The position numbers and the translations under genes were made by a program. This document shows positions 10,578 to 19,533 of a stretch of DNA of 64,000 nt, in pieces; positions within the stretch are counted from its first letter, which is position 1; every line of letters starts with the position of its first letter. The notes under the pieces were generated by a model that was given only the letters and a program-made list of their open reading frames with translations, did no database searches and was not told where the DNA came from. Source of the DNA: Polaribacter sp. (GTDB taxonomy: Bacteria; Bacteroidota; Bacteroidia; Flavobacteriales; Flavobacteriaceae). Where the stretch lies: NCBI GenBank assembly GCA_965261035.1, contig OZ253439.1, positions 1,337,070 to 1,401,069 of the forward strand. Direction: 5' to 3'.

Positions 10578-11894
10578 ATGAGTATAAAAGTTGATAAATA
10601 CATTCCGTTTAAAGTTAAAGATATTTCTTTGGCTGATTGGGGAAGAAAAGAGATAGAATTGGCAGAAGCAGAAATGCCGGGGTTAATGTCTTTAAGAGAA
10701 GAATACAAAAACGAGCAGCCGCTTAAAGGAGCAAGAATTGCAGGATGTTTGCATATGACCATTCAAACGGCAGTGCTGATTGAAACATTAAAAGATTTAG
10801 GGGCAGAAGTTACTTGGAGTTCGTGTAATATTTTTTCTACACAAGACCAAGCCGCTGCTGCAATTGCTGCTACCGGAACTCCTGTATATGCTTGGAAAGG
10901 ATTGAGTGATGAAGAATTTGACTGGTGTATAGAACAAACTTTATTCTTTGGCGAAGACAAAAAACCGCTAAATATGATTTTAGATGACGGTGGAGATTTG
11001 ACCAATATAGTATTAGACCGTTATCCTGAATTAGCTGATGGAATTAATGGACTAAGTGAAGAAACTACAACTGGAGTTCATCGTCTATACGACAGGGTAA
11101 AAGCAGGAACGTTGCCAATTCCAGCAATTAATATAAATGATTCTGTTACAAAATCTAAATTTGATAATAAATACGGATGTAGAGAAAGTGCTGTAGATGC
11201 TATCCGTAGAGCAACAGATGTTATGTTGGCTGGAAAACGTGTAATTGTTTGCGGTTATGGAGATGTTGGAAAAGGAACTGCGGCTTCTTTTAAAGGAACA
11301 GGCTCCATAGTTACTGTAACAGAAATAGACCCAATATGTGCGTTGCAAGCTGCAATGGACGGATTTGAAGTAAAAAAATTAGAAACTGTCGTTGGAAATG
11401 CTGATATAATTATCACAACTACTGGAAATAAAGATATTGTCCAAGCTCGTCATTTTGAAGCGATGAAAGACAAAGCAATAGTTTGTAATATTGGACATTT
11501 TGACAATGAAATAGACGTAGCTTGGCTGAATGATAATCACGGAAGTACAAAAATAGAAATAAAACCTCAAGTTGATAAATATACCGTTAATGGAAACGAT
11601 ATTATCCTGTTAGCAGAAGGTCGTTTGGTGAATTTGGGTTGTGCAACCGGTCATCCGAGTTTTGTGATGAGTAACTCTTTTACAAATCAAACTTTGGCAC
11701 AAATAGAATTGTGGACAAATCGTGATGCTTATAAAAATGAAGTTTATATGTTGCCAAAACATTTAGACGAAAAAGTAGCAAAATTACATTTAGCCAAAAT
11801 TGGCGTTGAGCTGACAGAATTACGTAAAGACCAAGCAGAATATATTGGCGTTACCATAAAAGGTCCATTTAAACCGGAATATTATAGGTACTAA
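10578..11894 (+). CDS. ahcY: Adenosylhomocysteinase
   Basis: [36 protein letters not shown]. Confidence 0.98.
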
Positions 11895-11964: not shown

Positions 11965-12633
11965 ATGACACAAAACATAAAAACAAATTATCAGGTAAAA
12001 TCTAAAGAGCGAGTTACTGACCACGGAGAAGTATTTACCTCTGAACGTGAAGTAAACGCTATGTTAGATTTGGTAAAACAGGAAACAGAGCGTATAGACT
12101 CTCGTTTTTTAGAACCAGCCTGTGGAACTGGAAATTTTTTAGTTGAAATACTCAGGCGAAAACTTATAATTGTTGAAAGTAGGTATAAAAAAAGCCAACC
12201 AGAATATGAACGAAATGCTGTAATTGCCATTTCCAGTATTTACGGAATTGACCTGTTAGAAGATAATATAAAAGAGTGCAGACAAAGATTATTTGAGATT
12301 TTTGATAAACAATACACCTCTCTTTATAAAGAGAACTGTAAAGAAGAATGCAGAATTAGTGTAAAATTTATTCTTAAAAAAAATATATTAAGAGGTGATG
12401 CCTTAACTCTTAAAACAGTTAGCAATAACGATGAACCAATCGTGTTTTCCGAATGGTCTGCTGTTAATGGCAATATGATAAAACGAAGAGATTATACTAT
12501 GGCAAACTTATTAGAAAGCCAGCCAGTAGAAGGTTTAAACCTTTTCTCTGATTTGGGCGACAAAGCATTTATTCCAACGCCTGTACGTGAATTTAAGCTG
12601 ATGCACTTTTTGAAATTAACAGATGATGCTTAA
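11965..12633 (+). CDS. Short amino-methyltransferase-like protein (motifs X, I, II, III; no NPPY)
   Basis: GEVFT, FLEPACGTGNFL, IYGIDL, GDAL; no motif IV in 222 aa. Confidence 0.85.
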   Translation: MTQNIKTNYQVKSKERVTDHGEVFTSEREVNAMLDLVKQETERIDSRFLEPACGTGNFLVEILRRKLIIVESRYKKSQPEYERNAVIAISSIYGIDLLEDNIKECRQRLFEIFDKQYTSLYKENCKEECRISVKFILKKNILRGDALTLKTVSNNDEPIVFSEWSAVNGNMIKRRDYTMANLLESQPVEGLNLFSDLGDKAFIPTPVREFKLMHFLKLTDDA

Positions 12634-13194
12634 AACAAATTACAACCCAGATATATTAACTTGTCTTGCTAATTTAAGTAACGATGAGGTTTTTACTCCT
12701 CCAAAATTGGTAAATGATATATTAGATATACTGCCTCAAAAACTCTTCACAAATAAAAATACAACCTTTTTAGACCCTGTTAGTAAATCTGGAGTGTTTC
12801 TAAGAGAAATTGCCAAACGATTAATGGAGGGTTTGGAAAGCGAAATACCCGACAAACAAGAACGAGTTAACCATATATTTAAAAACCAGATATTTGGTAT
12901 TGCAATAACAGAATTAACCTCTTTACTCTCTCGTAGAAGTGTATATTGCTCCAAAACTGCAAACGGAAAATACTCCGTTTGCGAAACCTTTGACAACAAA
13001 CAAGGAAACATAATTTTTAACCGAACAAAACATACTTGGAAAAACAATAAATGTACTTATTGCAGTGCAAGCAAAGAGGTATATAACAGAGATAAAAAAT
13101 TAGAAACCTATGCCTATCAGTTTATACATACTGATAAACCTAAAAATATTTTTAATATGAAATTTGACGTAATTATTGGTAACCCGCCTTATCA
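12610..13194 (+). repeat. Near-identical repeat of 14265..14729 (5' part of methylase paralogs)
   Basis: Offset 1655 bp before and 1535 bp after a 120-bp indel. Confidence 0.92.
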
Positions 13195-14125
13195 GTTAAG
13201 TACAGGGGGGTCTGGAAGACAAGCAAAACCAATCTATCAAAAATTTATTAAACAAGCCCAAAAGTTAAACCCAAGATATTTAACGATGATTATACCTGCA
13301 AGATGGTATTCAGGAGGTTTTGGGTTAAATACATTTAGATATGAAATGCTTAATGACAAACGGATTAAATATTTAGTTGATTTCGATAATGCATCAGCGG
13401 TATTTCCTGGTGTCGATATTGCAGGAGGTGTTTGTTATTTTCTTTGGGACAAAAATTATAATGGCGATTGTATTGTTAACAATATTGACGAAGGAGATAT
13501 AAAATCTTCAAAAAGACCACTAAATGAGTTTTCAGTCTTCATCCGTAGGTCAGAATCAATTTCTATTCTACGCAAGATTTTTAAAAAGCATAAGGCTTCA
13601 GACGGATTCCTATACAATAGGGTGAACTCTATTGGTTCATTTGGTTTACCCACAAATTATAAGCCTACAAATAAAGGTGTACCTTGTCAATTTATACAAC
13701 GCATAGGTCTAAAATATGCAAAGCCAGCTGACGTTTTAGACAAGAATAGTATTATTAAAAAATGGAAATTATTAATACCTAAAGCACCTATCGCTGGTCA
13801 GACAGATTTCTCAAAGCCAATAACAATATATCATGCAAACAATACAATAATTATTAAACCAGGAGTTGCGTGTACCGATTCTTGGATTACTGCTGGGTCT
13901 TTTGATACAGAAGATGAAGTTGTCTCTTATAGAACCTATTTTTTTACTAAAATAATTCGATTTTTAATTCTTCAAACAGTTATATCTCAAGATATTAATA
14001 AAAGAAATTTTTTATTTGTACCTGATATTGGATTATATAAAGGAATTTTTACAGATGAAATTCTTAGAAAAAAATGGAATATTACGGAAGAAGAGTGGAA
14101 ATTTATTGACTCTAAAATCAAGTAA
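12623..14125 (+). CDS. Eco57I-like gamma-class adenine methyltransferase with specificity region, variant A
   Basis: DEVFTP, FLDPVSKSGVFL, IIGNPPYQ, IIPARWY; 11-nt overlap with the upstream gene. Confidence 0.88.
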   Translation: MMLKTNYNPDILTCLANLSNDEVFTPPKLVNDILDILPQKLFTNKNTTFLDPVSKSGVFLREIAKRLMEGLESEIPDKQERVNHIFKNQIFGIAITELTSLLSRRSVYCSKTANGKYSVCETFDNKQGNIIFNRTKHTWKNNKCTYCSASKEVYNRDKKLETYAYQFIHTDKPKNIFNMKFDVIIGNPPYQLSTGGSGRQAKPIYQKFIKQAQKLNPRYLTMIIPARWYSGGFGLNTFRYEMLNDKRIKYLVDFDNASAVFPGVDIAGGVCYFLWDKNYNGDCIVNNIDEGDIKSSKRPLNEFSVFIRRSESISILRKIFKKHKASDGFLYNRVNSIGSFGLPTNYKPTNKGVPCQFIQRIGLKYAKPADVLDKNSIIKKWKLLIPKAPIAGQTDFSKPITIYHANNTIIIKPGVACTDSWITAGSFDTEDEVVSYRTYFFTKIIRFLILQTVISQDINKRNFLFVPDIGLYKGIFTDEILRKKWNITEEEWKFIDSKIK

Positions 14126-14127
14126 TT

Positions 14128-14264
14128 ATGAGTAAGCAAAAATTAAATTCTACCTTAAATAAAGATTTGTTTGATGAGATTAAGTTTATAGAATCCATGA
14201 TTCGCCCAATGAAATTATAATATAAGTAATAAGTTTTTTCCACAACGCCCAAAAGCAAAGCTAA
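14128..14264 (+). pseudogene. Junction relic: 30-aa chimeric ORF ending IRPMKL plus a decayed copy of the nuclease-helicase 5' end
   Basis: MSKQKLNSTLNKDLFDEIKFIESMIRPMKL* (14128..14220); about 14199..14259 matches about 15649..15709 with ATG changed to ATA. Confidence 0.75.
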
Positions 14265-14277
14265 TTGAAATTAACAG

Positions 14278-15669
14278 ATGATGCTTAAAACAAATTACAA
14301 CCCAGATATATTAACTTGTCTTGCTAATTTAAGTAACGATGAGGTTTTTACTCCTCCAAAATTGGTAAATGATATATTAGATATACTGCCTCAAAAACTC
14401 TTCACAAATAAAAATACAACCTTTTTAGACCCTGTTAGTAAATATGGAGTGTTTCTAAGAGAAATTGCCAAACGATTAATGGAGGGTTTGGAAAGCAAAA
14501 TACCCGACAAACAAGAACGAGTTAACCATATATTTAAAAACCAGATATTTGGTATTGCAATAACAGAATTAACCTCTTTACTCTCTCGTAGAAGTGTATA
14601 TTGCTCCAAAACTGCAAACGGAAAATACTCCGTTTGCGAAACCTATGCCTATCAGTTTATACATACAGATAAACCTAAAAATATTTTTAATATGAAATTT
14701 GATGTAATTATTGGTAACCCGCCTTATCAAATGAGTGATGGGGGTGGTAGAGACTCAGGTGCAATCTCTCTTTACCATAAGTTTGTTCAACAAGCAAAAA
14801 AATTAAACCCAAGATATTTATCTATGATTATTCCTGCCCGCTGGTATTCTGGAGGTAAAGGTTTGAGTGATTTTAGAAAGGAAATGCTTAATGACAAAAG
14901 AATGGCTGAGATTCATGACTTCCCTGAAACATCTGATTGTTTTCCTAGACTAAACATTAGAGGCGGTGTCTGTTATTTTCTTTGGGACAAAAAACATAAT
15001 TCAGATTGTAAGGTTACAAACTATAAATCAGGGTTAAATATATCTAGGATAACTCGCCCTTTATTAGAGGTAAATGTTGATATTTTTATACGATACAATA
15101 GAGCTATAAGTATTTTGAGAAAAGTGAAAAAACTTAGCGAACCAACGTACTCAAAAATCGTTAGTTCTAGAAAACCTTTTGGAATACAATCAAATTTCAC
15201 AGATTTTAGTAACAAACAAACATCTGATAATAAAATTAAGATATTTAAAGTTGGTGGCATTGGATTTACAAATGAAGCTAATATAATTAATGGGAAAGAG
15301 CTAACAGATAAGATTAAAGTATTAGTATCAAAAGCAAGTCCAGGCGGGGATGATTTTCCTCACAAGATTATAAGCTCTCCGATTATAGCTAAACCTAAAT
15401 CTTGTTGTACAGAAACCTATTTAGTTGTTGATGTTGTTTTGAATTTTACGCAGGCAAAGAACTTATGTAATTATATGTCTACAAGTTTTTTTAGATTTAT
15501 GATGTCTCTTGTAAAAAACACGCAGAATATTTCCAAAAGTGTTTTTGAATTTGTCCCTATACAAAACCTTGACGAAGAGTGGTCTGACAAAAAGTTATAT
15601 ACCAAATACAATATAACTAAAGATGAACAAAACTTTATTGACACTCTAATTCGCCCAATGAAATTATAA
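14278..15669 (+). CDS. Eco57I-like adenine methyltransferase paralog, variant B (40-aa in-frame deletion, different specificity region)
   Basis: N-terminus nearly identical to variant A; NPPY present; C-terminal half divergent. Confidence 0.85.
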   Translation: MMLKTNYNPDILTCLANLSNDEVFTPPKLVNDILDILPQKLFTNKNTTFLDPVSKYGVFLREIAKRLMEGLESKIPDKQERVNHIFKNQIFGIAITELTSLLSRRSVYCSKTANGKYSVCETYAYQFIHTDKPKNIFNMKFDVIIGNPPYQMSDGGGRDSGAISLYHKFVQQAKKLNPRYLSMIIPARWYSGGKGLSDFRKEMLNDKRMAEIHDFPETSDCFPRLNIRGGVCYFLWDKKHNSDCKVTNYKSGLNISRITRPLLEVNVDIFIRYNRAISILRKVKKLSEPTYSKIVSSRKPFGIQSNFTDFSNKQTSDNKIKIFKVGGIGFTNEANIINGKELTDKIKVLVSKASPGGDDFPHKIISSPIIAKPKSCCTETYLVVDVVLNFTQAKNLCNYMSTSFFRFMMSLVKNTQNISKSVFEFVPIQNLDEEWSDKKLYTKYNITKDEQNFIDTLIRPMKL

Positions 15670-15670
15670 T

Positions 15671-18178
15671 ATGAGTAACAAATTTTTTCCACAACGCCCA
15701 GAGGCAAATCCAACAATTTATGCTTATAAAATTCTTAACACTTCAAGTCATAAGGATTTGCTAAAAGTGGGTTTTACAACTCGTACAGCCAAAGAACGTG
15801 TAGCAGAACAACTGCAAACAAGCGGTTTATCCTATAAAATAGTTTTTGAAGAACCTGCTATAAGAAACGATGGCAGTACCTTTACAGACCGTGATGTTCA
15901 CAAAATTTTACGTAAAAAAGGCATAAAAAACCCAGATGGTGAGTGGTTTAAATGTTCGGTTAAAGACGTTAAATCTGCAATTCTTTCAGTAAAAAACGGA
16001 GAACTTAACGAGGAAAACAGAACACTCAATTTTAAAATGCGACCAGAGCAAGAAGAAGCAGTAGATAGGGTTATTGCTTATTTTAACAGTTATAAAAAAG
16101 AAAACCCCAACAAAACACCTCACTTTTTATGGAATGCTAAAATGCGTTTTGGTAAAACCTTTGCTGCCTATCAATTAGCAAAAAAGATGGGCTGGACTAA
16201 AGTTTTGGTACTTACCTTTAAGCCTGCTGTTCAAAGTGCTTGGCAAGAAGATTTATCATCGCATATAGATTTTGAAGGCTGGCAATTTATCTCTAAAGGA
16301 GGTTTAACTTATGAAGAAGCAAATAAAAAAAAGCCTTTTGTTTGTTTTGGTTCATTTCAAAATTATTTAGGCAGAAATAAATCAACAAAAGGAATTAAAA
16401 CCAAAAATGAATGGGTTCATGCCACTCATTGGGATTGTGTAGTGTTTGACGAATATCATTATGGATCTTGGCGAGAAAAAGCAAAAGAACTTTTTGAGGC
16501 GGAAGACAAAAAAGAGATAAAATTCGCAACAGGAGAAGGAGAGGGAATAGATTATTTTGACGAAGAAGAAATACCAATTACAACTGACGGATTTTTATAT
16601 TTATCAGGAACACCTTTTAGAGCAATTAATTCGGGAGAGTTTATAGAAGAGCAGATTTTTAACTGGACATACTCTGACGAACAAAAAGCCAAAGAGAATT
16701 GGGAAGGTGAAAATAATCCTTATCTAACCCTGCCAAGAATGGTAATGCTAACCTATCAATTACCAGATTCAATTATAGAAATTGCATCGGAAGGAGAATA
16801 CAATGAGTTTGATTTGAATCAGTTCTTTAAAGCAAATGGAGAAGGGCAAGGTGCAAAATTTGAACTTGAAAGCGAAGTGCAAAAATGGTTAAATCTAATA
16901 AGAGGTGGTTTTAGAGAAACAACTTTAGATAACCTAAGATTAGGGGCAAAAAAACCGCCAATGCCATTTTCACATATTGAGTTATTAAACGTACTCACTC
17001 ATACTTTTTGGTTTTTACCAAGTGTAGCATCTTGCTATGCTATGAAAAACCTAATGAAACAACGACAAAATATCTTTTACCACGATTATAAGATAATTGT
17101 TGCCGCAGGTACTGCCGCGGGTAATGGGGTTGAAGCATTACCACCAGTTTTAAATGCAATGGATAACCCTTTAAAATCTAAAACTATTACATTATCGTGC
17201 GGTAAACTCACAACAGGTGTTTCTGTTAAACCTTGGACAGGAATCTTTATGTTACGAAACTCATCAAGTCCAGAAACATATTTTCAAGCAGCATTTCGAG
17301 TACAAACACCTTGGACAATTAAAAATCCGGATAGTAAATCTCCAAACAAAGAAGAAATCATAAAAAACGAATGCTATGTTTTTGATTTTGCTCCAAATAG
17401 AGCCTTAGGTCAAGTTGCAGAATACAGTTGTCGTTTAAATGTAAACGAATTAAACCCAGAGAAAAAAGTTGCTGAATTTATTCATTTTTTACCAATACTT
17501 GCATACGATGGCAGCTCAATGAAACAAATATATGCGGGTGATGTTTTAGATATTGCAATGAGCGGAACTTCTGCTACATTATTAGCAAGACGCTGGGAAA
17601 GTGCCTTGCTTGTAAATGTTGATAATGCTACCCTTGCCCGTTTAATGAGCAATCAACAAGCATTAGACGCTTTAATGAGTATAGAAGGATTCAGAATGCT
17701 AAATCAAGACATAGAAACCATAATTAATAAATCAGAATCAGTTAAAAAGGCAAAGAAAGAAGCCAATGATGAAGAATTTACGAAAAAGGAGAAGAAAGAA
17801 CTATCTAATGAAGAAAAGGAATACAAAAGTTTAAGAAAACAAATTCAAGATAAATTAATAAAGTTTGCTACAAGAATTCCCGTTTTTATGTATCTAACAG
17901 ACCACAGAGAAAGAAGCCTAAATGATATTATTACTCAGTTAGAACCCGGACTTTTTAAAAAGGTAACTGCTTTAAACGTAAAAGATTTTGAGTTACTTGT
18001 AAGTTTGGGAGTGTTTAATAGTGGTTTAATGAATGACGCAGTGTATAAATTCAAACGCTATGAGGACACTAGTCTTGAATATATTGGAATAAACAAACAC
18101 GAAGGGGAAGGCGTAGGGCTTTACGATACCGTATTAAGTCCTTATGATTATTCGGAGAGCTTTGAAAATAAGAAATAG
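15671..18178 (+). CDS. GIY-YIG/T5orf172 nuclease fused to SF2 (restriction-type) helicase
   Basis: IYAY...LLKVGFT..R...EWF; Walker A AKMRFGKT; Walker B FDEYH; LSGTP; QAAFRVQ. Confidence 0.85.
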   Translation: MSNKFFPQRPEANPTIYAYKILNTSSHKDLLKVGFTTRTAKERVAEQLQTSGLSYKIVFEEPAIRNDGSTFTDRDVHKILRKKGIKNPDGEWFKCSVKDVKSAILSVKNGELNEENRTLNFKMRPEQEEAVDRVIAYFNSYKKENPNKTPHFLWNAKMRFGKTFAAYQLAKKMGWTKVLVLTFKPAVQSAWQEDLSSHIDFEGWQFISKGGLTYEEANKKKPFVCFGSFQNYLGRNKSTKGIKTKNEWVHATHWDCVVFDEYHYGSWREKAKELFEAEDKKEIKFATGEGEGIDYFDEEEIPITTDGFLYLSGTPFRAINSGEFIEEQIFNWTYSDEQKAKENWEGENNPYLTLPRMVMLTYQLPDSIIEIASEGEYNEFDLNQFFKANGEGQGAKFELESEVQKWLNLIRGGFRETTLDNLRLGAKKPPMPFSHIELLNVLTHTFWFLPSVASCYAMKNLMKQRQNIFYHDYKIIVAAGTAAGNGVEALPPVLNAMDNPLKSKTITLSCGKLTTGVSVKPWTGIFMLRNSSSPETYFQAAFRVQTPWTIKNPDSKSPNKEEIIKNECYVFDFAPNRALGQVAEYSCRLNVNELNPEKKVAEFIHFLPILAYDGSSMKQIYAGDVLDIAMSGTSATLLARRWESALLVNVDNATLARLMSNQQALDALMSIEGFRMLNQDIETIINKSESVKKAKKEANDEEFTKKEKKELSNEEKEYKSLRKQIQDKLIKFATRIPVFMYLTDHRERSLNDIITQLEPGLFKKVTALNVKDFELLVSLGVFNSGLMNDAVYKFKRYEDTSLEYIGINKHEGEGVGLYDTVLSPYDYSESFENKK

Positions 18179-18222: not shown

Positions 18223-19533
18223 ATGAATAGCATAGTTGCCATTGTAGGAAGACCAAATGTAGGAAAATCAACTTTGTTTAATCGCTTAGTACAGCGTAGA
18301 GAAGCTATTGTGGATTCTGTAAGCGGCGTTACTCGTGATAGACATTACGGAAAATCTGACTGGAACGGAAAGGAGTTTTCTGTTATTGATACCGGCGGAT
18401 ATGTTGTAGGTTCTGATGATATTTTTGAACACGAAATCCGTAAACAAGTAGAATTAGCTTTAGACGAGGCAGATATTATCATTTTTGTCGTTGATGTTGA
18501 ACAAGGAATTACGCCAATGGATTCTGAGGTTGCAAAGATTTTACGAAAAGTAAAAAAACCGATATTTACTGCCGTAAATAAAGTTGATAACTCTATGCGA
18601 GATGCAGATGCCGTAGAATTTTACAATTTAGGATTAGGAGATTATCACACTATTTCATCTATAAACGGAAGTGGAACGGGTGATTTGTTAGACGCTATTA
18701 CAAAAATAATTCCAGCACCAGAAGAAGTAGATTTAGAATCAGAAGAATTGCCGAGATTTGCTGTAGTCGGTCGCCCAAATGCAGGAAAATCATCATTTAT
18801 TAACGCACTAATCGGCGAAGACAGAAATATTGTAACAGATATTGCAGGCACAACCAGAGATTCTATCGATACTAAATACAATCGCTTCGGGTTTGATTTT
18901 AATCTAGTTGACACAGCTGGAATCAGAAAAAAATCAAAAGTAAAAGAAGATTTAGAGTTTTATTCTGTGATGCGTGCGGTAAGAACCATAGAATATTCCG
19001 ACGTAGTTATATTGATGGTTGATGCCACTCGCGGTTTTGAAAGTCAAGATCAAAATATATTTTGGCTGGCAGAAAAAAATAAAAAAGGAGTAGTTATACT
19101 AATCAATAAATGGGATTTGGTTGAAAAAGAAACCAATACTATGCGAGATTTTGAAGCCAAAGTAAGAACGCAAATGTCCCCATTTACAGATGTACCTATT
19201 ATTTTTACCTCTGTTCTAACAAAGCAACGTATTTTTAAAGCGATAGAAACTGCGGTTACCGTTTTTGAAAACCGCAAAAATCGCATTCCTACAAGTAAAC
19301 TGAACGAGACGATGCTGGAAATTATCAAGCAGAATTCACCACCCGCAATCAAAGGAAAGTTTGTTAAAATCAAATATTGTATGCAATTGCCGACCAAAAC
19401 TCCGCAATTTGCTTTTTTTGCTAATTTGCCACAGTATGTTAAAGATCCTTACAAACGTTATATAGAAAATCAATTGCGCGAGCAATATAATTTTAATGGT
19501 GTTCCTATAATTATTTATTTTAGACAGAAGTAG
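18223..19533 (+). CDS. der: Ribosome biogenesis GTPase Der
   Basis: Two G-domains ([16 protein letters not shown]), DTGG/DTAG, NKVD/NKWD. Confidence 0.98.

Follow-up and report, generated by a model that had tools for sequence, protein, structure and literature searches.

A DrdVI-family locus in Polaribacter

A 64,000-nt window of the Polaribacter sp. contig OZ253439.1 (positions 1,337,070 to 1,401,069, forward strand; all positions below are window positions) contains a locus of four co-oriented genes, named M1, M2-A, M2-B, and R herein. The locus is probably a horizontally acquired and apparently intact restriction-modification (R-M) system of the DrdVI family that works by the mechanism proposed below. 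Genes on the forward strand code for a 222-aa half-methyltransferase (M1, 11965–12633), a complete 500-aa Eco57I-type methyltransferase (MTase) of the gamma N6-adenine class with a C-terminal target recognition domain (TRD; M2-A, 12623–14125), a second M2 copy of 463 aa with a different TRD (M2-B, 14278–15669), and an 835-aa protein that joins a T5orf172 nuclease to a superfamily 2 (SF2) ATPase/translocase and a highly conserved C-terminal region (R, 15671–18178). M1 and M2-A overlap by 11 nt (12623–12633), and the M2-B stop codon lies 1 nt ahead of the R start. The open reading frame (ORF) list and Pfam confirmed the gene layout, the overlap, and every motif quoted in an earlier note on this DNA. 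The open frames of M1, M2-A, and R are full-length and contain all family-invariant catalytic residues.

A tblastn search of plasmids with M1 identified pDrdVI (NZ_CP031164) of Deinococcus wulumuqiensis NEB 479. This plasmid codes for a 212-aa 'DNA methyltransferase', a 539-aa methylase with an Eco57I domain, and an 851-aa DEAD/DEAH helicase, in the order and orientation found here. Identity to the DrdVI proteins is 44% for M1 (residues 11–209, E 1e-54), 44% for M2-A (residues 8–500, E 3e-146), and 55% for R (residues 9–823, E 0). R is full-length relative to its DrdVI counterpart, with no truncation. The DrdVI M2 resembles M2-A in its DPxxKSGVF motif I and in an H..W..KCxxC Zn-ribbon-like segment, its R has the same T5orf172-plus-SF2 build, and the genes of both loci overlap or abut. 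The present locus differs in that M2 is tandemly duplicated, with two TRDs and a relic between the copies, and in its flavobacterial host and chromosomal location. Because the homology extends over essentially the whole length of each of the three proteins and the gene order is the same, we assign the locus on sequence grounds to this catalogued family and not to a new kind of system. The earlier note had held that it fits no named system, a claim that must be withdrawn.

In the literature, DrdVI is presented as a fusion of a translocase with a GIY-YIG restriction enzyme (PMC4996451). Cloned in Escherichia coli, M1-2.DrdVI produces N6-methyladenine (m6A) at GCAGCC and is labelled IIG (PMC6430315 Table 1), and M1-M2.MaeIV of Methanococcus aeolicus produces m6A at GCACY, listed among the single-strand-modified motifs (PMC10113651). 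Methylation is confined to one strand in both. These papers from New England Biolabs (NEB) use the term "split methylase/RM genes" for the family, which REBASE files under Type IIG. In both cases M1 and M2 were cloned together without R and the pair was named as one methylase, 'M1-2' (PMC6430315; PMC10113651).

PADLOC returned only the generic MTase_II and REase_MTase_IIG models; its single-chain REase_MTase_IIG model PDLC03626 (1359 positions) aligns with R on positions 151–801 and with M2 on 863–1356. No NCBIfam family scored above its cut-off for the locus proteins, and PDB sequence searches with M1, M2, and R returned nothing useful and no sequence-level match to Type ISP chains. Loci of this kind should be annotated as DrdVI-type R-M systems and not as novel defence systems. 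Categorically the locus is nothing new; what it offers is a naturally occurring case in which an M2 cassette has been duplicated and a TRD exchanged.

Methyltransferase subunits

M1 carries motifs X (HGEVFT), I (FLEPACGTGNF), II (IYGIDL), and III (RGDAL) of the gamma-class N6-adenine MTases and has neither motif IV (NPPY) nor a TRD. The earlier note's description of intact S-adenosylmethionine (SAM) motifs without NPPY was borne out, and the only Pfam match is to the N-terminal part of MmeI_Mtase (residues 43–149, E 7e-8). M1 homologues form more than 8000 clusters at 90% identity, nearly all of them 210–230 aa long and at 60–80% identity across phyla. In the family alignment F48–F58 (FLEPACGxGNF), G144, D145, and A146 are invariant and the motif II Asp, D96, is present in at least 90% of sequences. 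Mean pairwise identity of the M1 core is 69% across phyla.

Two other interpretations of M1 were rejected. A truncated gene or pseudogene does not agree with homologues that have this length everywhere, this identity across phyla, and a constant position upstream of M2. The sequence IVFSEWS was considered as a substitute for NPPY on strand b4; single-chain relatives carry both IFSEW and FDVIIGNPPY, and IFSEW therefore belongs to a hairpin inserted before b4. The AlphaFold2 (AF2) model of M1 (pLDDT 80) has only strands b1–b3, the hairpin, and a confident short C-terminal segment. In a structure search with this model no match reached significance (best E 0.4; half of a Rossmann fold is not diagnostic), and the weak best matches are the MTase parts of LlaGI and LlaBIII.

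Both M2 copies contain DEVFTP, FLDPVSK(S/Y)GVF, FGIAITE, and GNPPYQ, with a C-terminal specificity region after these motifs. The motif order is that of the gamma class (X-I-II-IV), and both match Pfam Eco57I (E 5e-36 for M2-A, 3e-28 for M2-B). The earlier note read the SAM motifs of M2 as degenerate. In an alignment of 70 M2 sequences the Lys and Ala deviations are present as described: K55 stands at the expected first Gly of GxG in 70/70, and position 94, canonically ribose-binding, is Ala or Ser and never acidic. Degeneracy is nevertheless unproven, as both deviations are invariant or nearly so and lie in the N-lobe, the most conserved part of M2 (mean pairwise identity 75%, against 63% for the catalytic lobe and 37% for the TRD). 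Their conservation marks them as family-wide, fixed features, under strong selection and not in decay. M2-A has every family-invariant residue (D51, P52, K55, G57, H137, W139, C144, C147, and N187–Q191).

One explanation for this complementary pattern is an enzyme split in the literal sense. M1 would be the only SAM-binding lobe and would complete the NPPY/TRD lobe of M2, and the M2 N-lobe would be a conserved pseudo-lobe reused for docking M1, R, or DNA. The canonical motifs I, II, and III of M1, invariant or near-invariant, fit this explanation, as do K55 and the Ala or Ser at position 94 of M2. Several properties of M2 weigh against it. Besides being the best conserved part of the protein, the N-lobe keeps motif X (DEVFTP), D51-P52, G57, F59, and an acidic residue three positions past A94 (E/D97) in 70/70 sequences. 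M.TaqI has Ala, not Gly, at the position matching K55, which also argues against M1 as the sole SAM-binding lobe. The AF2 model of M2-A (pLDDT 80, pTM 0.79; region ~109–160 poorly defined) aligns over its whole length with monomeric gamma-class MTases. Its best PDB match is CamA (E 2e-15), followed by PglX, BpuSI, and M.TaqI, and MmeI also matches. M2 is thus predicted to fold as a complete CamA/TaqI-like enzyme. Because the deviations are invariant or nearly so, the N-lobe is the most conserved part, and the model matches whole single-chain MTases, M2 may bind SAM itself in a non-canonical way. We regard the literal split as possible, though on the unlikely side.

Motor-nuclease

The earlier note described R as a T5orf172/GIY-YIG nuclease on an SF2 helicase and not a PD-(D/E)xK or PLD nuclease, and the domain searches agree. 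Pfam matches are T5orf172 (residues 17–105, E 1.3e-9), MUG113 (E 3e-7), and ResIII (residues 121–279, E 9e-9), with no match on R to a PD-(D/E)xK or PLD family. The N-terminal domain therefore belongs to T5orf172/MUG113 of the GIY-YIG clan, and the SF2 ATPase/translocase occupies aa ~120–600. R homologues form more than 8000 clusters (90% identity) at 77–80% identity. Motif conservation was assessed from 50 of them. The T5orf172 signature (IYAY, KVG.T, an Arg, and GEWF) is invariant, as are RPEQ, MRFGKTF, DEYH, LSGTPF, and QAAFRVQ of the SF2 part. SF2 motifs I, II, III, and VI are all invariant. Mean pairwise identity is 56% in T5orf172, 75% in the motor, and 82% in the C-terminal 220 residues. 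This most conserved part is likely a docking surface.

The same conservation bears on a second alternative, in which M2 is a self-sufficient methyltransferase and M1 stands outside the catalytic methylase as a SAM-binding regulatory subunit, for example a sensor or adaptor that licenses or restrains R, in the way that Type I and Type III restriction use SAM as an allosteric cofactor. The complete predicted fold of M2 is in keeping with a regulatory M1, and identities of 69% in M1 and 82% in the C-terminal region of R would fit a conserved M1-R or M2-R interface that is independent of the variable TRD. Two observations point the other way: NEB cloned M1 and M2 without R and named the pair as one methylase, which suggests that M1 is tied to methylation, and the M1 stop codon overlaps the start of M2, not that of R. 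We consider a purely regulatory M1 unlikely.

Tandem duplication of M2

The two M2 genes begin with a forward-oriented direct repeat. Copy 1 (12610–12989) comprises 13 nt before M2 and the first 122 M2 codons, and it has 2 mismatches in 380 nt to copy 2 (14265–14644). Beyond this 380-nt head, identity between the copies drops to 77–88%, then to ~40–50% over the TRD, and is back to 88% in 14207–14264. Overall M2-B is 54% identical to M2-A, with a near-identical N-terminus and a diverged TRD. Between the genes, at the end of the first duplicated unit, is a forward-strand relic of an older M2 3' end and R start (14173–14264). It reads as the M2 C-terminus (DEIKFIESMIRPMKL, then a stop codon) followed by the first 42 nt of R, whose ATG is now ATA, and is 80–88% identical to 15622–15713. 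It is directly followed, at 14264/14265, by a copy of the final 13 nt of M1. The near-identical heads and this junction indicate that a 1,655-bp unit, from 13 nt before M2 to 43 nt into R, was duplicated in tandem. By the same sequence comparison the TRD of one copy was evidently exchanged later, leaving three M2 3' ends. No silent M2 or TRD cassettes were found elsewhere in the genome. Two M2 genes occur in 0/80 related loci.

M2-B is missing residues 122–161 of M2-A (40 aa; a 120-nt deletion). The missing segment is the Zn-ribbon-like one with the H..W..CxxC pattern and holds the invariant H137, W139, C144, and C147. It is present in the other 69 M2 sequences, and M2-B is the sole sequence without it. 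M2-B either provides a second specificity or serves as a silent cassette. A TRD-bearing M2 that recruited R without methylating would be self-destructive, so M2-B should either keep full activity despite the missing segment or perform neither function.

The duplicated structure is found in public sequencing runs. The junction contig (14173–14294) is present at 1x depth, the 380-nt repeat is a single unitig at ~2x depth, and the M2-B deletion junction (14615–14697) is at ~1x depth in five runs. In the assembly, M2-B has A at 14444 (S56Y, giving 'DPVSKYG') and A at 14497 (E74K). All contigs of four public runs that contain the locus read C and G at these sites, the same letters as copy A, and the two substitutions are therefore either strain-private mutations or assembly consensus errors. 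The M2-A TRD (13169–14202) is at 0.3–0.5x of the flank depth (X4, 7.6 against 24; X5, 20.7 against 43; X3, ~0.4x), and depth is 1x at its two borders and at the duplication junction in X3, X4, and X5. The samples behind these three runs probably contain a second TRD allele at copy A as well; its sequence was not recovered from contigs of the public runs. A 30-codon frame at 14128–14222 (MSKQKLNSTLNKDLFDEIKFIESMIRPMKL, then a stop codon) begins 3 nt past the M2-A stop and enters the relic of the M2 3' end. Rather than being a gene, it probably arose as a side effect of the TRD exchange.

The rearrangements raise the question of whether the locus is itself a relic in which the surviving M2 copy acts as an orphan or epigenetic methylase, the state suggested for DnmA-YeeB-YeeC of Bacillus subtilis. 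That precedent (PMC9973331) speaks for such a state, as do the tandem duplication, the relic fragment, the 120-nt deletion in copy B, the TRD heterogeneity in public samples, and the frameshifted R genes of several related loci, which are possibly assembly errors in metagenome-assembled genomes (MAGs). Set against these are M1, M2-A, and R, all full-length with every family-invariant catalytic residue, and an R that is not truncated relative to DrdVI. A relic is in our judgement improbable.

Distribution of the cassette

Eighty genome loci were fetched through M1, and gene order was judged only where the flanking sequence was sufficient. In essentially all of these, M1 is followed by M2 (~500 aa) and then R (~835 aa). 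The cassette occurs in Bacteroidota, Ignavibacteriota, Patescibacteria, Proteobacteria, Chloroflexota, Planctomycetota, Spirochaetota, and one Bathyarchaeota MAG. A three-gene order that recurs across so many phyla is not due to chance. Some loci have an optional gene of ~1 kb between M2 and R, such as a YhcG/DUF1016 gene (L006). With more than 8000 protein clusters per subunit at 90% identity, the DrdVI-type family is among the most abundant R-M-type cassettes in environmental genomes.

An independent locus set was obtained with a profile spanning M2 and R in 401 sampled Bacteroidota species. The M2/R pair is present in ~20 of them (~5%), and M1 is directly upstream in 8/8 split loci found in this way, that is, via M2/R and not via M1. 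The earlier note had proposed a heteromeric methylase coupled to a translocating nuclease. The 'split' label of NEB and REBASE and the constant presence of M1 beside M2 (8/8) agree with that proposal, and an obligate division of cofactor binding and catalysis between the two proteins, which it also included, is unproven. From the comparative sequence data we conclude that M1 is an obligatory partner of M2, at least by the measure of co-occurrence.

M1 was found in only 2/101 species of the genus, and the locus is absent upstream of der, the gene that follows it here, in 11 congeners. This sporadic distribution points to horizontal spread of the cassette. In Ignavibacteria, an 85-aa ORF ~5 kb upstream of the cassette (L003, 2690–2947; also L004, L005, and L012) has 91% identity to M1 residues 7–49. 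It looks like a stray M1 5' fragment and hints at a past rearrangement there.

Fused and single-chain relatives

The lobes of the DrdVI-type methylase occur in other combinations, and these bear on how M1 and M2 cooperate. In single-chain Eco57I-type MTases (P0288, P0301, P0315, P0359, and P0379), an M1-type N-half leads straight into an M2-type half with FDVIIGNPPYQ and the TRD, without a second N-lobe. The N-half of such proteins is 47–60% identical to M1 (50–60% for, e.g., P0288 and P0392–P0394), and the NPPY and TRD half is homologous to the C-half of M2. An M1 lobe and an M2 catalytic lobe can therefore form one enzyme, in support of the literal split. Where context is visible, however, these genes stand alone or beside a conserved 197-aa gene, with no helicase-nuclease as in DrdVI systems. 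By this context they appear to be a sister family and not a DrdVI-type system, which lessens their weight for that explanation. The 197-aa protein follows the MTase at L091 7795–8388, L092 7573–8166, and L093 7521–8114 and has no Pfam match. The two genes may form a Type II-like sister system in which this protein does the restricting.

A more distant family is fused in nature. One locus (L094) codes for a 1320-aa T5orf172-helicase-MTase-TRD protein. The MTase part of this family reads DIASKQGEF (D-x-x-S-K-x-G-x-F) and lacks an acid at both motif II positions. Its 300–336-aa M1-like partner, by contrast, has retained EVFTP together with the Glu of motif II and the Asp of motif III. The fused family thus repeats the complementary pattern of M1 and M2, a second point in favour of the literal split. 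This repetition and the existence of single-chain MTases of M1 and M2 type both speak for a genuine functional pairing between M1 and the catalytic lobe of M2. M1-like partners were found in 4/401 genomes, all with a long fused helicase-MTase frame. Retention of the partner even where M2 and R are fused is also what a regulatory M1 would lead one to expect.

The M1-like partner gene lies just upstream of the fused gene at L094 (5467–6444, reverse strand) and at L118, L119, and L120 in other Bacteroidota. The full-length partners (3/4; the L119 frame ends earlier) end in CxGC...HNGxY...DW. The H..W..KCxxC Zn-ribbon-like element is thus inside M2 in DrdVI-type systems, whereas a similar element is on the M1-like partner in the fused family. 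In L096 (G077:C18) an open frame of at least 953 aa, cut by the locus end (1338 aa in the genome search), combines a helicase part with an M2-type region. That region aligns only from residue 172 on (NPPY lobe and TRD) and apparently has no M2 N-lobe, and it appears to be another way of distributing the lobes among polypeptides.

Proposed mechanism

The C-terminal TRD of M2 would read a short asymmetric DNA site, and the NPPY lobe would methylate one adenine on one strand. M2 is proposed to act only together with M1, an obligatory and catalytically dead partner that keeps the SAM-binding motifs. At unmethylated sites R would be recruited to the M1-M2 complex, pull DNA, and cut. Marking of one strand at an asymmetric site would leave one daughter duplex unmarked at each site after replication. 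Self-protection therefore probably relies on a requirement for two complexes to converge, an arrangement shared with Type ISP and Type III systems. By analogy with these, and because only one strand is marked, we infer that cleavage needs ATP-driven translocation and the convergence of two complexes. The subunit contacts, cutting by translocation and collision, and the identity of the protein that holds SAM are likewise inferred. The system would thus amount to a Type ISP enzyme that is distributed over three polypeptides and carries another kind of nuclease, and working like a Type ISP enzyme split into subunits is its most likely mode.

A more specific version is that the DrdVI-type methyltransferase is an obligate heteromer of reciprocally specialised paralogous lobes. 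M1 would be the sole holder of SAM. The M2 N-lobe, conserved even more strongly, with an invariant Lys in its glycine loop, no ribose-binding acid, and a Zn-ribbon insert, would serve as a pseudo-cofactor lobe linking the methylase to the T5orf172 motor-nuclease. Tandem M2 cassettes with a shared 380-nt head would then let one M1/R pair change or broaden its specificity by recombination. We put this version forward as speculative and, taken as a whole, doubtful.

Several points weigh against reading the locus as a working system of this kind. M1 and M2 have only been cloned together in the published work that we found (PMC6430315; PMC10113651), so the need for M1 is presumed. The earlier note had named a clean mapping onto a characterised R-M type as grounds for giving up its reading; the family is catalogued and its specificity measured, but we found no published account of how or where DrdVI cuts, nor of the role of M1. 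The related DnmA-YeeB-YeeC cluster of B. subtilis did not protect against phage and was considered a relic (PMC9973331), so clusters of this sort can be inactive in restriction. The duplication, the relic between the copies, and the deletion in copy B mark a locus that is being rearranged, and it could be on its way to decay. The question of what M1 does belongs to the family and not to the present locus. Together with its fused and single-chain relatives, the locus provides a construct set for testing whether a SAM-binding lobe can be supplied in trans.

Comparison with other systems

Type ISP enzymes (LlaGI and LlaBIII) share with the present locus a nuclease, an SF2 motor, a gamma-class N6-adenine MTase, and a TRD. 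The order nuclease-motor-MTase-TRD is found in the fused relatives (L094), and members of the DrdVI family, like Type ISP, methylate an asymmetric site on one strand. The present locus differs in being split into three polypeptides (four genes here, counting the second M2) with the MTase genes first, in a T5orf172/GIY-YIG nuclease in place of an Mrr-like PD-(D/E)xK, and in M1, a half-methylase with no counterpart in Type ISP. Compared with the usual Type IIG enzymes, R and M2 are encoded by separate genes and not as one polypeptide, the REBASE label IIG notwithstanding. M2 is gamma-class with a C-terminal TRD, unlike the beta-class Mod of Type III with its internal TRD, and the nuclease is an N-terminal T5orf172, unlike the C-terminal PD-(D/E)xK of Res. 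There is no S gene (HsdS) as in Type I; the TRD is within M2.

The DnmA-YeeB-YeeC clusters of B. subtilis and Vibrio crassostreae combine a non-palindromic m6A MTase, an SF2 helicase, and a T5orf172 protein in defence islands (PMC9973331). They differ from the present locus in having a single MTase of the MmeI type with no M1 partner, and in carrying the helicase and T5orf172 on separate proteins.

Genomic neighbourhood

The four genes are flanked by ahcY (10578–11894) and der (18223–19533). A sigma-70 promoter scan gave 31 matches against 28.5 expected. No clean empty site for the cassette between ahcY and der was found in the 11 congeners, where the two genes are not adjacent. In these genomes ahcY is not in the 1.5 kb upstream of der, and 6/11 have another der-like GTPase gene there. 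Because the congeners have no ahcY upstream of der, the ahcY-der neighbourhood of the present genome is itself rearranged.

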